A DNA stretch of 39,838 nt from Candidatus Peregrinibacteria bacterium (lineage in GTDB: Bacteria > Patescibacteriota > Gracilibacteria > UBA1369 > LOWO2-01-FULL-3). Below the pieces are notes generated by a model, which was given only the letters and a program-made list of their open reading frames with translations, was not told the DNA's origin and searched no databases. Below, piece by piece: positions 28,432 through 34,792 of the stretch (position 1 is the first letter of the stretch; every line of letters begins with the position of its first letter). A program made the translations under genes and the position numbers. The stretch lies in the NCBI GenBank assembly GCA_016235895.1, contig JACRIB010000016.1, forward strand, positions 1 through 39,838. The letters run 5' to 3'.

Positions 28432-29634
28432 ATGAGTACGGTTTTAATTATCGGAGCGGGAGGTGTAGGGGGAGTTGTGGCGCATAAATGCGCGCAAAAT
28501 ATGGATGTTTTTACCAAAATTGTGATGGCCAGTCGTACGCTTTCCAAGGTTCAAAAAATCGCCGATGATATTGGCGGAAACAAAGTTGAGCCAATGCAAG
28601 TGGATGCGGATAATGTGCCGGAATTAGTAGCTCTGATTAAAAAAGTGCAACCTTCATTAGTGATAAATGTGGCTTTGCCATATCAAGATTTGCACATCAT
28701 GGATGCTTGCTTGGAAACGGGTGTGAATTATATGGACACGGCGAATTATGAACCGCCGGACGTGGCAAAATTCGAATATAAATGGCAATGGGCTTATCAG
28801 GATAGATTTAAAGAGAAAGGAATAATGGCTTTACTCGGCTCCGGATTCGACCCTGGTGTGACAAATGTTTTTTGTGCATATGCGCAAAAATATTTATTTG
28901 ATGAAATTGAAACGGTGGATATTTTGGATGCCAATGGTGGTGATCATGGTCATCCTTTTGCGACAAATTTCAATCCGGAAATTAATATTCGCGAAGTAAC
29001 GGCCAAGGGTCGCTACTTTGAGAATGGCGAATGGAAGGAAACAGAGCCGCTTTCGGTTCATCAGGCTTTTAATTTTGAAGGAATTGGTCCGAAAGAAATG
29101 TATGTGATGTATCACGAAGAGATGGAGTCGCTTTCGAAGAATATTAAAGGTGTAAAAAGAATGAGATTTTTTATGACTTTTGGAGAAAAATATCTGACTC
29201 ATTTAAAAGTTTTGGAGAATGTGGGAATGACCAGAATTGATCCTGTGATGTACGAGGGGCATCCGGTTGTGCCATTGCAATTTTTGAAGGCGGTATTGCC
29301 GGATCCCGCTTCGCTGGGCCCTACTACTAAAGGAAAAACAAACATCGGCTGTATCATTAAAGGCAAGAAAGATGGCGTGGAAAAACGTGTTTATATCTAC
29401 AATATTTGCGACCATGAAGAATGTTACAAAGAAGTAAAAAGTCAGGCGATTTCTTACACTACCGGTGTGCCGGCGATGATTGGCGCCAAGATGATTTTGA
29501 CCGGTGCCTGGAAAGGTACCGGAGTCTTCAATATGGAAGAATTTGATGCCAAGCCGTTCATGGATGAATTGAATTTGCGCGGTTTGCCCTGGGTAGTAAA
29601 AGAGCTGAAGCCGGACGAATGTGTGGTGCAATAA
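28432..29634 (+). CDS. saccharopine-dehydrogenase-family enzyme, likely carboxynorspermidine synthase
   Basis: IIGAGGVGG Rossmann start, about 400 aa, directly upstream of an nspC-like gene. Confidence 0.8.
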   Translation: MSTVLIIGAGGVGGVVAHKCAQNMDVFTKIVMASRTLSKVQKIADDIGGNKVEPMQVDADNVPELVALIKKVQPSLVINVALPYQDLHIMDACLETGVNYMDTANYEPPDVAKFEYKWQWAYQDRFKEKGIMALLGSGFDPGVTNVFCAYAQKYLFDEIETVDILDANGGDHGHPFATNFNPEINIREVTAKGRYFENGEWKETEPLSVHQAFNFEGIGPKEMYVMYHEEMESLSKNIKGVKRMRFFMTFGEKYLTHLKVLENVGMTRIDPVMYEGHPVVPLQFLKAVLPDPASLGPTTKGKTNIGCIIKGKKDGVEKRVYIYNICDHEECYKEVKSQAISYTTGVPAMIGAKMILTGAWKGTGVFNMEEFDAKPFMDELNLRGLPWVVKELKPDECVVQ

Positions 29635-29658
29635 ACTAATTTTTGTTAGATTGGTTTC

Positions 29659-30873
29659 ATGAAAAAGAGACCTTCATCGACTTTAGATTCGTCCAAAGTG
29701 CAAACTCCGGTTTTTGTAATTGAGGATGAGCTTTTGAAACACAATTTGGAGCGACTAAAATATGTGAAAGATCGATCCGGTTGTAAAATTTTTCTCGCGA
29801 TGAAGGCTTGGGCGACCTGGCCGCTGTTTAAAATGGTGAAAAAATACTTGAATGGCAGCGAAGTGAGTTCTTTGAATGAGGCGCGTCTTGGTTTTGAAAA
29901 ATTTGGACCGGAAGTGCATATTTATTCACCGGCCTATAAATCTACTGAATTTGATGAGATTCTAAAGAATTGCAGTCATATAATCTTTAATTCATTTGGT
30001 CAATGGTGGCAATTTCGCCATCAGGTTGAGAAATTTTCCAAAAAACACAGAAAAAACATAGAATGCGGTTTACGCATCAATCCGGAGGTGAATATGGGTG
30101 CGGACGCCGGTGACATGTATAATCCTTGCGCGCCCGATTCGCGTCTGGGGGTGCGTTTTGGAGAGTTTGAAAAAGTGCTAAAAAACGATCAAAAAGCTTT
30201 GGAAGGTCTTTCGGGAATTCATTTTCATATCTTTTTTGAAAAAGACGAGCAAGATTTGGAAAAAGTTCTGCCACAAATTGAAAAAAAATTCGGCAAATAT
30301 TTTAAACAGCTAAAATGGGTAAATTTTGGTGGCGGACAGAAAATTACCGACGATAATTATGACGTAGAGAAATTAATTAGTCTTATAAAGAATTTCAAAA
30401 AGCGTTACGGCGTGCAAGTTCACTTGGAACCGGGAGCGGCCGTAGTGTGGCAAACGGGCATTTTAGTGGCTTCGGTTTTGGATATTGTGGAAAGGGATGG
30501 CGTAGCTTATAAAATCCCGATTTTGGACATTTCTTTCGAGGCGCATCTGATGGATTTCGTGCTAAGCCCTGATTTGGAATTGCGGATACGCGGAGCAGGT
30601 GGCGAAAAGAAATATAAAAACATTTATCAGTTTGGCGGCTGTACTTGTCTGGCCGGAGATAAACTCTCGCAGCTGTACAGTTTTCCTAAGGAATTAAAAG
30701 TTGGTGACAAAATTGTGATTGAAGATGGAATTCAATATTCATTGGTAAAAGTTACGATGTTTAATGGTGTACAGCATCCGGATATCGTGCTGTGGAAAAA
30801 GGCCGGTAAAGAATATATTCCAAAACTGATCCGTAGATTTGGTTATGAAGATTTCAAGAAGAGGATGGGGTGA
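29659..30873 (+). CDS. nspC: carboxynorspermidine/carboxyspermidine decarboxylase
   Basis: Size and layout of a PLP-dependent alanine-racemase-fold decarboxylase (NFGGGQ, LEPGAAVV), plus pairing with the upstream dehydrogenase. Confidence 0.8.
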   Translation: MKKRPSSTLDSSKVQTPVFVIEDELLKHNLERLKYVKDRSGCKIFLAMKAWATWPLFKMVKKYLNGSEVSSLNEARLGFEKFGPEVHIYSPAYKSTEFDEILKNCSHIIFNSFGQWWQFRHQVEKFSKKHRKNIECGLRINPEVNMGADAGDMYNPCAPDSRLGVRFGEFEKVLKNDQKALEGLSGIHFHIFFEKDEQDLEKVLPQIEKKFGKYFKQLKWVNFGGGQKITDDNYDVEKLISLIKNFKKRYGVQVHLEPGAAVVWQTGILVASVLDIVERDGVAYKIPILDISFEAHLMDFVLSPDLELRIRGAGGEKKYKNIYQFGGCTCLAGDKLSQLYSFPKELKVGDKIVIEDGIQYSLVKVTMFNGVQHPDIVLWKKAGKEYIPKLIRRFGYEDFKKRMG

Positions 30874-30912: not shown

Positions 30913-31006
30913 TGGCGGAGAGGGAGAGATTCGAACTCTCGCTAGGGGTTAACCCCCTACTACAGGATTAGCAATCCCGCCCCTTCAGCCACTTGGGTAC
31001 CTCTCC
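30913..31006 (-). tRNA. tRNA-Ser (anticodon GCU), CCA encoded
   Basis: Folded by hand. Acceptor GGAGAGG/CCTCTCC, anticodon loop TTGCTAA, long variable arm, T-arm GAGAG-TTCGAAT-CTCTC, 3' GCCA. Confidence 0.9.
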
Positions 31007-31651: not shown

Positions 31652-31792
31652 CTAAATTAATTCATCATACAATTCCTGAATCTGTTTTTTAAGCCATGGA
31701 ATTTGAGAATATTGTTTTCGAAATGACGGAGGAAGATTTTTCACGGCTTCTCCAATAATTTCTACACGTCTAATGATAGCATCCTGCATCAT
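31652..31792 (-). pseudogene. HEPN/DUF86 (HepT-like) fragment
   Basis: The translation MMQDAIIRRVEIIGEAVKNLPPSFRKQYSQIPW matches the central DUF86 motif. The N-terminal third and the RxxxxH catalytic motif are missing. Confidence 0.55.
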
Positions 31793-32012
31793 TTTCATTT
31801 GTACAAACTTTTCTATTAATACTGGCTTCCAGAGTTGTTTTTAAATGTGCCAATTCTAGCAAGCCAATAGTTTTACTGAATTTTACAAGTAAATCCAAAT
31901 CACTTGTTTTTTTTTCGTTTCCAGTTGCAAATGATCCAAAAATTGCTGCTTTGGTAACACCTTGGCTTTTTAGAATGGGGATAATTCTTTTTTTGATTAC
32001 TTGAATGGTCAT
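31770..32012 (-). CDS. MNT-type nucleotidyltransferase (MntA-like antitoxin) with aberrant C-terminus
   Basis: GSFATGNEKKTSDLDLLV minimal nucleotidyltransferase motif. After RKV the sequence diverges and overlaps the HEPN fragment out of frame. The Met at 32012 is preferred as the start. Confidence 0.6.
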   Translation of the reverse strand: MTIQVIKKRIIPILKSQGVTKAAIFGSFATGNEKKTSDLDLLVKFSKTIGLLELAHLKTTLEASINRKVCTNENDAGCYH

Positions 32013-32114
32013 GTAGTGAGTATAGCAATAGCCATCAATGCTTGTAAATTGATTACTAACCGATTCTAACAAAAGAAAACTATGTGCCGTGTCCACTTTT
32101 TGGGGTACAGATCA

Positions 32115-32204
32115 TGGCGGAGAGAGAGGGATTCGAACCCCCGAGGAGCTTGCGCCCCTAACGGTTTTCAAGACCGTCGCTTTCGACCGCTCAGCCATCT
32201 CTCC
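32115..32204 (-). tRNA. tRNA-Ser (anticodon UGA), CCA encoded
   Basis: Folded by hand. Acceptor GGAGAGA/TCTCTCC, anticodon arm ACGGT-CTTGAAA-ACCGT, long variable arm, TTCGAAT T-loop. Confidence 0.9.
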
Positions 32205-32230: not shown

Positions 32231-34792
32231 TTACATCTCCTCCACAACTTCAACCCCAAGTAAATTTAGTCCATTCTTCAGAATTTGCGCGCTGGCGCGG
32301 ACTATTTCAAGACGCTCTTTTTTGTCTTTTGGATCAGCTATTTTTAGCACCGGAACACTATTATAAAAAGCATTGAATTTTTGAGCCAATGCGTAGAGAT
32401 AATTGCAAAGCACGTTTGGCTTGTATTCTTGGGCTGCCAAATTTAAAAATTCGGCGTATTGCGGGAAAAGGGCTATTAGTGCCCGAGTTTTTTCCCGGCT
32501 TTGAGTCTTATCTTCCTTGATTCCGTCCGTGCTTAATTCTTCCTCCGCCTTCCTCAAAATACTCCTGGCCCGGGCGTAAGAATATTGCAAATATGGCGCG
32601 CTGTTACCATCGAGGGCGAGCATTTTGTCCCAGTCGAAAACAATGTTGGTGGTGCGATTTTGCGACAGAACATTGTATTTTACCGCGCCGATACCGATTG
32701 CACGGGCGACCGCGTCCATATTTTTGAGTTCGGGGTTTTTTTCTTTGATAATTTTACCGGCACGTTCGATCGCTTCATTCAAAACTTCATCTAAAAGGAT
32801 AATATTACCCTTTCTGGTACTCATTTTGCTGTCTTTAAATTGCATTCTGCCGAAAGCCACGTGTTCGGCTTCGCCTTTATACCAGCCGAGTTTTGTGGCT
32901 GCGGTAAGCAGTTGTTTGAAGTGCAGGGTTTGGGCTACATCCACGACATATATTATTTTTGCGGGCTTCCAGGTATCGATGCGATATTTGAGAGCGGCAA
33001 AATCGCGGGTGATGTAGAGCGTAGCGCCATTGCCTTTTTGCACCGGAACCGTAGGAATATTGGGGTCGTCATATTTGATAACCAAGGCTCCTTCATCGCC
33101 TTTAACAAAGACTTTTTTCTTTTTTCCGTCCTTGATAATTGCCGCCATTTTCTCCTCGTAAAAGCTCTCTCCCTGCGTGTAATCAAAATGAATTCCTCCC
33201 AACAAATCATAGGTTTTTTGAATTTCTTTGAGGCTTTCGCGCACAAACCATTCCCAAAGTTCCCGATTGGTCTTGTTTCCATCTTCAAAATCTTTGAATT
33301 CTTTGCGAGCTTCGTCTTCCAATTTCGGATTTTTTTCCGCTTCTTCATGAAATTTTACGTATAATTTCAAAAGTTCGTCTATTGGATTTTTTTCTATCAC
33401 TTTTTTTTCGCCCCAATTCTTATAAGCGTAAATAAGTTTGCCGAATTGCGTGCCCCAATCCCCTATGTGATTTATGCTGATGGCTTTGAAGCCGAGTTTG
33501 TTAAAAATATTATAAATACTTTGGCCGATAATTGTGGATAAAAGATGGTGAATTCCCAATGGCTTAGCGATATTCGGCTGGCTGTATTCAACAATTAAAT
33601 TTTTATTTTTGCCAATTTCGCCGGTGCCAAAATTATCTTTTTCTCTATTCACCAGCTCGACCTGATATCGCAAAAAAGAATCTTTGATGAAAAAATTTAT
33701 GAAACCCGGTCCGGCAATTTCGACTTTTTCAATCAAATCATCTGTGTCAATTTCCTTGACCAGTTTTTCGGCAATTTCGCGAGGGGGCAGATTTAGGATT
33801 TTGCTTAATTGCAGGGCCACGCCGGAGGCATAGTCGCCGTAATTTTCCTGATTGGGATGGTCGATTTTCACCTCCGCCAAATCACTATTCGGAAAACTCT
33901 TATGAATGGCCTTTAGAAAAATCGTGGCCAGTTTGTTTTTGAGCAAATTTTGATCATGAAGATCAAATTTCAGATTGGGAGAGGAAGTTCGCGCTTTTTT
34001 TTTTATATTTTCAGTCTCCTCTTTTTCCAGAAAATGCACCTTCTCTTGAAGAGGAATCTTGGAATCATCCGCGTGTTTTCTACCGGCAATCCCTAGATCA
34101 AGGTAGCGATTTTCCTCGTTAAGGATAAAGGTTTCCGTGTGACCGCCAATATATTTCAAAATGGTGTTTTCTATTTCCTTGAGAATGTGGCCAAATTCAT
34201 CCATGTGCATTTTGCTCAAATCCTCAATTAACAAGACAGCATTTACTGTTTTTGGAGTAAATTTGGTTCTTTCACATTCACGATAATTCCAATATCTGCA
34301 GGTGATTCCACCATTATCAATGTAGGCTGCTTCACCTTCCTGCGCTCTTTCGACTTCAATGGAGCCAAGAGGTCTAAAGGGCTCACCACCTTTGGTAAAA
34401 GTAAGGTTCAGGTCTCCGCAAAGCCAATCCAGGTCTTCGCCACCAATCGGCAAAAGATATTTGAGAGAGAAATAATTGTAAATATCCACCAAAATATTGA
34501 TGTGAGGAATGTCTTTACCGGCTTTGATTCTTTTTAATAAAGCGGCGATGGATGGTGGGAATTTTCTCGGATTGATGCCAAATTTGCCATAAGCCTGACT
34601 CCAGGCCTGCACCATGGGATGCTCGTAAACATCTTTTTCGGTAAATTCTTTAGTGCGTTGAGCGCAAACGCCGCGCAGAAGGCCTTCTACGGCTGAAACT
34701 CTACGGGAATTATTGATCCCTTTTATGAGCAACGCTCCTACCTTAAGGTCCGGCTGCTGTTCAAAAATTTTCTGATCGATGATTAACTTCAT
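32231..34792 (-). CDS. argS: arginyl-tRNA synthetase fused to an N-terminal PheT-type B3/4 domain
   Basis: Residues ~290-853 look like ArgRS (PNIAKPLGIHHL HIGH-type motif, MSTRKG, YLQYSYARARSIL). Residues 1-~215 resemble stand-alone B3/4-domain proteins. It is one uninterrupted 853-aa ORF. Confidence 0.88.
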   Translation of the reverse strand: MKLIIDQKIFEQQPDLKVGALLIKGINNSRRVSAVEGLLRGVCAQRTKEFTEKDVYEHPMVQAWSQAYGKFGINPRKFPPSIAALLKRIKAGKDIPHINILVDIYNYFSLKYLLPIGGEDLDWLCGDLNLTFTKGGEPFRPLGSIEVERAQEGEAAYIDNGGITCRYWNYRECERTKFTPKTVNAVLLIEDLSKMHMDEFGHILKEIENTILKYIGGHTETFILNEENRYLDLGIAGRKHADDSKIPLQEKVHFLEKEETENIKKKARTSSPNLKFDLHDQNLLKNKLATIFLKAIHKSFPNSDLAEVKIDHPNQENYGDYASGVALQLSKILNLPPREIAEKLVKEIDTDDLIEKVEIAGPGFINFFIKDSFLRYQVELVNREKDNFGTGEIGKNKNLIVEYSQPNIAKPLGIHHLLSTIIGQSIYNIFNKLGFKAISINHIGDWGTQFGKLIYAYKNWGEKKVIEKNPIDELLKLYVKFHEEAEKNPKLEDEARKEFKDFEDGNKTNRELWEWFVRESLKEIQKTYDLLGGIHFDYTQGESFYEEKMAAIIKDGKKKKVFVKGDEGALVIKYDDPNIPTVPVQKGNGATLYITRDFAALKYRIDTWKPAKIIYVVDVAQTLHFKQLLTAATKLGWYKGEAEHVAFGRMQFKDSKMSTRKGNIILLDEVLNEAIERAGKIIKEKNPELKNMDAVARAIGIGAVKYNVLSQNRTTNIVFDWDKMLALDGNSAPYLQYSYARARSILRKAEEELSTDGIKEDKTQSREKTRALIALFPQYAEFLNLAAQEYKPNVLCNYLYALAQKFNAFYNSVPVLKIADPKDKKERLEIVRASAQILKNGLNLLGVEVVEEM

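Follow-up and report, generated by a model that had tools for sequence, protein, structure and literature searches.

A putative CtdA-type deacylase module fused to arginyl-tRNA synthetase in Candidatus Peregrinibacteria and related bacteria

The stretch of DNA analyzed here, in the following called the window, comprises the 39,838 nucleotides of contig JACRIB010000016.1 (assembly GCA_016235895.1) from a Candidatus Peregrinibacteria bacterium and carries on its minus strand an argS gene whose product joins an N-terminal B3/4-type module to an arginyl-tRNA synthetase (ArgRS). The open reading frame (ORF) starts with ATG, ends with TAA and forms a single unbroken frame of 853 codons for amino acids, within which neither a stop nor a frame change was found. 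The encoded protein consists of a B3_4 domain, a conserved extension of 24 residues, a variable linker of about 30 residues and a complete ArgRS (Table 1). The Pfam profiles B3_4, Arg_tRNA_synt_N, tRNA-synt_1d and DALR_1 all matched, B3_4 at residues 63-189 with 85.6 bits (cut-off 29.3; E 4e-24). Thereby, the B3/4 fold is supported, as is the architecture given in a preliminary description of this DNA, namely a B3/4-like N-terminus and an ArgRS in one continuous ORF; the two peptides it had quoted as B3/4-like were located at residues 97-122 and 161-179. An internal start giving a separate ArgRS was considered and rejected, as residues 240-300 contain no ATG and just GTG and TTG codons in unconvincing context.

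Table 1. Parts of the fusion gene in the window and the evidence for each; residue numbers refer to the 853-residue protein.
Feature	Position in window	Strand	Evidence
Whole fusion gene, 853-residue CtdA-like module + ArgRS in one frame	32231..34792	minus	All four domains common to the 120 best homologues
CtdA-like B3/4 deacylase module (putative), residues 1-232	34097..34792	minus	Pfam, PDB sequence search, AlphaFold2 model and Foldseek
Family-specific C-terminal extension, residues 233-256	34025..34096	minus	Alignment, conservation among fusions, predicted helix
Variable Lys/Glu-rich linker, residues 257-286	33935..34024	minus	Low identity, length variation, pLDDT, composition
ArgRS N-terminal (Add-1) domain, residues 287-369	33686..33934	minus	Pfam Arg_tRNA_synt_N, 84.6 bits
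ArgRS class I catalytic domain, residues 391-721	32630..33622	minus	Pfam tRNA-synt_1d, 282.5 bits
DALR anticodon-binding domain, residues 735-853	32234..32590	minus	Pfam DALR_1, 115.4 bits
Key module residues: S81, Y105, N106, S109, G117, E119, C165, W168, N169, E172, R175, E190			

To survey this architecture, the 120 best database matches of the full protein (49-76% identity; sources NCBI, JGI, ENA and Logan) were used as the set of homologues. All 120 have the same layout, with B3_4 and ArgRS domains in one protein, and the query is covered to 98-100% in all but two of them, a partial sequence and a protein with a long insertion. Where the source names them, they come from Candidatus Gracilibacteria, Peregrinibacteria, Peribacteria or the 'Patescibacteria group', with the exception of one Nitrospirota genome bin; the databases annotate them plainly as arginine--tRNA ligase. 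Median identity to the query is 67.6% for the N-terminal module, 66.5% for the ArgRS catalytic domain, 58% for the extension and 19% for the linker. Because the first two values are so close, purifying selection on the module is, as far as sequence identity reports it, as strong as on the essential catalytic core of ArgRS.

Searching with the module alone also returned proteins of 257-272 residues that contain B3_4 only (55-74% identity). In every case examined, the gene for such a protein lies directly upstream of an argS of 557-600 codons, and these split loci share the synteny of the window, where murA and a gene for an fn3 surface protein are followed by B3_4 and argS; Lactamase_B and CNNM/CorC genes are present at the loci of the split relatives and not in the window. 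On the DNA level stops and starts are clean: the two genes overlap as ATGA at locus L003 and are separated by 2 nucleotides at L005. At L004 they are connected as TAA-AAC-ATG and are in the same frame, therefore loss of the stop alone would fuse them. The split B3_4 proteins terminate just after the conserved extension, and the variable linker is absent from them. Since the same two functions exist among close relatives both as a translationally coupled operon and as a single polypeptide, the gene arrangement is a classic sign of a shared pathway, as judged from the sequences. Unfused ArgRSs among the matches listed for generic ArgRS motifs in GTDB species genomes, which gave comparators and no census, include some from Gracilibacteria and Peribacteria whose argS has no module within 3 kb upstream. 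In the split-form relative L003, a gene of the YbaK/ProX-type tRNA_edit family (PF04073; 8043-8570) is located ~1.6 kb downstream of argS.

The existence of two-gene forms in relatives, which in L004 are parted in-frame by one stop alone, is what would be expected if the fusion were an artefact in which an assembly or sequencing error deleted a stop or a frameshift and thereby merged adjacent genes. This explanation is hardly conceivable, because the four domains occur in one protein in all 120 homologues and these stem from many independent assemblies and sources. Moreover, the linker segment is present in the fused forms and missing from the split ones, and the ORF in the window has no stop or frame change.

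For the N-terminal module, residues 1-245 were used as query for a phmmer search of all PDB chains at E<=1. Two chains were matched, both of CtdA, which acts as a free-standing deacylase on canavanyl-tRNA(Arg) (9mkl, E 5e-23; 9f7e, E 1e-22), and no chain of phenylalanyl-tRNA synthetase (PheRS) was matched at this threshold. An AlphaFold2 model of residues 1-275 reached a mean predicted local distance difference test score (pLDDT) of 92.6 and a predicted template modeling score (pTM) of 0.87, and its top matches in Foldseek were again 9f7e and 9mkl, with E ~2e-18, a target template modeling (TM) score of 0.80-0.84 and 228-230 aligned columns. The B3/B4 domains of the PheRS beta subunit (PheRS-beta) were matched at E>=1e-7 with a query TM score of ~0.5, i.e. 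~11 orders of magnitude weaker than CtdA. Also, the CtdA-type insert IS1 (~residues 31-95) is present in the model, with helices 33-49, 59-70 and 81-90 occupying this region. With CtdA structures as top fold matches and PheRS-beta far behind, sequence and model indicate that the module is a B3/4 superfold, more precisely of the CtdA type, and not PheRS-like in detail. The preliminary assignment to a PheRS-beta-type B3/4 domain was thus right for the superfold and has to be replaced by CtdA for the subtype; besides the missing phmmer match and the weak Foldseek matches, the partner ArgRS speaks against membership in the PheRS-type subclass.

The residues tested or discussed in CtdA (S80, Y104, N105, S108, G116, E118, C166, N170, Q173, R176, position 189 and E191) are given in CtdA numbering. 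S80, Y104, N105, S108, G116, E118, C166 and E191 correspond to S81, Y105, N106, S109, G117, E119, C165 and E190 of the window protein, and the position of Q173 is occupied by E172, the same Glu as in the active CtdA of C. perfringens (PMC12449066). The exchanges Y104F, N105D, E118Q and E191V abolish CtdA activity (PMC12268091), while S80, S108, G116, C166 and Q173 are lining or shaping residues of the pocket, with specificity tuned by C166, the hallmark of CtdA-1 (PMC12268091, PMC12449066). All mutagenesis-tested CtdA residues have counterparts in the window protein, and by alignment its CtdA-type active site is intact. Among the 120 fusion homologues, the equivalents of E191 and R176 are invariant, those of N170, N105 and S108 are kept in 119, 114 and 113 proteins, respectively, and the position of C166 is occupied by Cys (82), Ser (13), Val (12) or Ala (5). 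All 11 key positions are in an allowed state in 79 of the homologues, and 95 have at most one deviation.

The part of the protein between the two enzymes is composed differently from what had been described before. True stand-alone relatives stop at about residue 225-235, where the fold is predicted to end with a beta-hairpin (strands 218-224 and 230-232); the interval 34150-34792 first proposed for the module covers residues 1-214, but the folded module extends to about residue 232. Residues 233-256 contain the conserved motif G-R-K-x-A-D-D-S-K-I/V-P-x-Q-E-K, which in the alignment occurs only in modules associated with argS, whether fused or split, and is missing from CtdA-like proteins that stand alone. 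A helix predicted by AlphaFold2 at residues 248-266/270 starts in the C-terminal part of this motif, and the extension may be a docking element for ArgRS. A Lys/Glu-rich linker does exist, but instead of the ~70 residues assumed in the preliminary description it comprises ~30; the remainder (residues 215-256) is conserved and predicted to be structured, comprising the end of the fold and then the extension. The variable stretch spans about residues 257-286, disorder is predicted at residues 264-270 only (pLDDT below 50), and the length of segment 200-287 varies across the family from 79 to 147 residues, i.e. by ~70 residues. The AlphaFold2 model of the full-length protein has a pTM of 0.69.

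The ArgRS part was matched from residue 285 to 853 by the NCBIfam argS equivalog TIGR00456 with 505.8 bits (cut-off 261.65), and among proteins of solved structure E. coli ArgRS (4oby) came closest, aligning end to end over the same residues with 353.7 bits. The HIGH-equivalent is G413-I-H-H416 (33545-33556 in the window), where E. coli has HVGH, and the KMSKS-equivalent is M657-S-T-R-K661. As the TIGR00456 score exceeds the cut-off and the motifs PNIAKP...HH and MSTRKG do not vary within the fusion family, the ArgRS part looks functional. At the HIGH position, 115 of the 120 relatives have the variant G-V/I/A-H-H, which is found in the unfused Peribacteria ArgRSs L009 and L031 as well, and the first position varies in this ArgRS subtype (H, S, G, T, Q). 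The variant was therefore dropped as a correlate of fusion; by these comparisons GIHH is a lineage trait unlinked to fusion and probably compatible with ArgRS activity.

To determine how widely the module occurs, an exhaustive profile-free search was carried out with it over 1.84 billion cluster representatives, which yielded 2883 relatives at E<=1e-3. Among the best 150 of these 2883, ~33 are fusions of module and ArgRS. When clustered at 45% identity, their ArgRS parts form 19 or more groups; many of these parts are only 24-32% identical to the window ArgRS, and the module is thus found joined to widely differing kinds of ArgRS. One divergent fusion comes from Candidatus Shapirobacteria, and in a fusion group with Microgenomates/Woesebacteria-type ArgRS only some 12 among the 120 nearest ArgRSs carry the module. 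Since so few of the nearest ArgRSs are fused in this other group of the candidate phyla radiation (CPR), the fusion is, according to these samples, dominant in the clade of the window and sporadic elsewhere in CPR. Two variants of the layout were seen: P0163 (1124 residues) has two CtdA-like modules in tandem (residues 1-236 and 266-511) preceding ArgRS, and P0316 (783 residues) is a Microgenomates-type ArgRS with a PF01588 tRNA_bind domain from which the B3_4 module is absent.

Related modules were also found in fusion with tyrosyl-tRNA synthetase (TyrRS; P0186, P0193, P0254, P0292), class I lysyl-tRNA synthetase (LysRS; P0185, P0196) and class II LysRS (P0172, P0203, P0204, P0233). They are located at either terminus and share 31-40% identity with the window module, and their partners score above the NCBIfam cut-offs. 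To our knowledge, neither TyrRS nor LysRS of either class has an editing domain. The ester-bond residues S80, Y104, N105, S108 and G116 are largely kept across the groups, Y104 varying in two of the four TyrRS-fused modules. The acidic CtdA-type pocket is kept in the modules fused to ArgRS and LysRS; in the four fused to TyrRS, positions 118 (H/Y/D), 170 (V/A), 176 and 189 are replaced. Such partner-dependent pocket residues are, in small samples of four TyrRS-fused and six LysRS-fused modules, the pattern expected of amino-acid-specific editing pockets.

From homology, the gene in the window probably encodes a working ArgRS with an N-terminal CtdA-family deacylase that would perform tethered post-transfer editing of analogue-mischarged tRNA(Arg). 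This reading is supported by the split and fused linkage, the conservation, the intact active site and a pocket matching the partner. ArgRS would charge tRNA(Arg) and, like most ArgRSs, would incompletely reject arginine analogues such as canavanine, which ArgRS generally accepts (PMC10018355). The deacylase, tethered beside the synthetase by the conserved helix and a flexible linker of ~20-30 residues, could capture the 3′ end of the aminoacyl-tRNA during or after its release and would hydrolyze the ester bond when the side chain is that of an analogue. Y105 and N106 (Y104 and N105 in CtdA) are expected to act at the ester bond, and the guanidino-like side chain would be read by the acidic pocket floor (E119, E190) together with C165/E172. 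Correct Arg-tRNA(Arg) would be spared; in the CtdA system it is protected also by ArgRS and EF-Tu (PMC12449066). The net effect would be a post-transfer editing domain for ArgRS, i.e. a tethered form of the trans-editing by stand-alone CtdA. Among the functions considered in the preliminary description, the evidence favors proofreading against arginine analogues, canavanine for example (PDB sequence matches to CtdA only, E ~1e-22; top fold matches; pocket residues present), and nothing was found in specific support of ornithine as substrate or of a regulatory role.

Several observations weigh against tethered editing by a CtdA-family enzyme. Over 140 aligned residues the module is only 32-35% identical to the two authentic CtdAs, and by raw distance it is no nearer to CtdA than to the LysRS-fused modules. 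In a neighbor-joining tree, the authentic CtdAs, two in number, were placed together with 41 of the 42 ArgRS-fused modules, to the exclusion of the TyrRS- and LysRS-fused ones; with a bootstrap value of ~2% (76-taxon subsample), this grouping was dropped as proof of orthology with CtdA-1. Canavanine is a legume metabolite, and there is no sign that these CPR bacteria meet it. Furthermore, ~11 of the 120 fusions (~10%) have at least four key residues replaced and still keep the domain. A divergent fusion of 908 residues from uncultured Peribacteria (L008, 3001-5727) has an N-module without the GGITCRYWN...RTK segment (C166-R176) and without the E191 equivalent. Because several catalytic residues were lost in these proteins and the domain was kept, degenerate yet retained domains suggest some value of the module beyond catalysis.

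The latter fusions fit the view that the module is a non-catalytic appendage, which would bind the tRNA acceptor end or stabilize the enzyme and thereby raise aminoacylation efficiency in an organism with a reduced genome. Appendages for tRNA binding do arise on ArgRS in these lineages, as the unrelated PF01588 domain of P0316 demonstrates, and the IS1 insert of CtdA reportedly offers a basic surface to the CCA end (PMC12268091). We nevertheless consider this view unlikely, as all catalytic and pocket residues are intact in the window protein and in 79 of the 120 homologues, including Y104 and N105, which serve hydrolysis only. Also, the residues of the pocket floor vary with the class of amino acid that the fused synthetase handles, which would be needless for a generic tRNA binder.

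Alternatively, the module could be an active deacylase with another job. It could be a regulatory brake on Arg-tRNA(Arg) or another aminoacyl-tRNA, or have a target other than canavanine, e.g. homoarginine or methylated arginine. Canavanine is not obviously present in the habitat of these bacteria, and position 166, which tunes specificity in CtdA, varies among the fusions. CtdA weakly deacylates Arg-tRNA(Arg), and other substrates in canavanine-unexposed organisms have been raised by the authors of that study (PMC12449066). Hydrolysis of the own correct product would, however, be an ATP-wasting futile cycle, and the pocket is CtdA-like at every tested position, which makes such a job distinctly improbable; the version with another arginine analogue would be a sub-case of tethered editing and no true rival to it.

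Among known systems, the stand-alone CtdAs (9F7E from P. canavaninivorans; 9MKL) resemble the module in fold including the IS1 region and in catalytic and pocket residues, and the physical link to ArgRS implies the same tRNA species. CtdA is a free-standing single domain of ~230 residues, whereas the window module is fused to ArgRS (operon-coupled in relatives), has the additional conserved extension of 24 residues and differs from CtdA in about two thirds of the aligned residues. With the B3/B4 domain of PheRS-beta it shares the Pfam family B3_4, the core fold and the arrangement as a cis-acting post-transfer editing domain on a synthetase, if the proposed function is correct; N105 is reported to be common to bacterial B3/B4 domains, and the insert pattern of the PheRS domains differs (IS1 and IS3, or IS2; PMC12268091). 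Their pocket takes Tyr, in contrast to the basic side chain expected for the window module, and the partner synthetase is of the other class. Editing modules that occur free, as the product of a neighboring gene or as a synthetase domain are also represented by AlaX and the AlaRS editing domain, ProXp/YbaK and the ProRS INS domain, and archaeal ThrRS-ed (also listed in PMC12449066), but these have folds unrelated to the window module and none serves ArgRS, LysRS or TyrRS. E. coli ArgRS (4OBY) has the same three-domain layout with PNIAKP and MSTRKG-type motifs and lacks an N-terminal deacylase module.

ArgRS serves as a textbook case of a synthetase that lacks an editing domain, and Hauth et al. 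2023 (PMC10018355) stated that none had been described for it. Full-text literature searches gave no description of ArgRS, LysRS or TyrRS fused to B3/B4 modules. The CtdA papers deal with stand-alone proteins only, and the words 'fusion' and 'fused' are absent from them. In a large CtdA survey, the phylogeny was restricted to sequences of 180-260 residues, therefore fused forms would be excluded. What is new here is the probable service of a known deacylase family as the cis editing domain of a synthetase regarded as lacking such a domain. The lineage-wide fusion of ArgRS and a CtdA-like module, together with the split operons, would, like a Rosetta-stone gene fusion, independently tie the young CtdA family to the quality control of tRNA(Arg). 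It also suggests that analogue-charged tRNA(Arg) may be a real fitness problem well beyond legume-associated bacteria. The fused and split forms offer a compact model in which the conversion of a trans-editing factor to a cis domain can be studied, and the predictions are directly testable with existing CtdA assays.

The LysRS and TyrRS sister fusions would point to editing activities nobody has sought. Taken further, CtdA-like B3/4 modules could be a general, overlooked proofreading add-on for synthetases considered free of editing domains, which was recruited repeatedly in CPR to ArgRS, TyrRS and LysRS of classes I and II, as fused domains or coupled upstream genes, with pockets tuned to the amino-acid analogues of the partner. 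The window enzyme would then be the first known case of an ArgRS that possesses a genuine domain for post-transfer editing. This generalization is a tentative one, worth serious consideration while falling somewhat short of probable.

An Rfam scan of the window detected two tRNA-Ser genes and nothing else, in particular no T-box. The gene for tRNA-Ser(TGA) (32115-32204) is located 26 nucleotides downstream of the argS stop, and that for tRNA-Ser(GCT) (30913-31006) lies further downstream. Between them, an ORF of 108 codons (31770-32096) encodes a minimal nucleotidyltransferase (Polbeta/NTP_transf_2). Adjoining genes of the saccharopine-dehydrogenase and Orn/DAP/Arg-decarboxylase families are found at 28432-30873, a combination usually seen in the carboxy(nor)spermidine pathway of polyamine synthesis.

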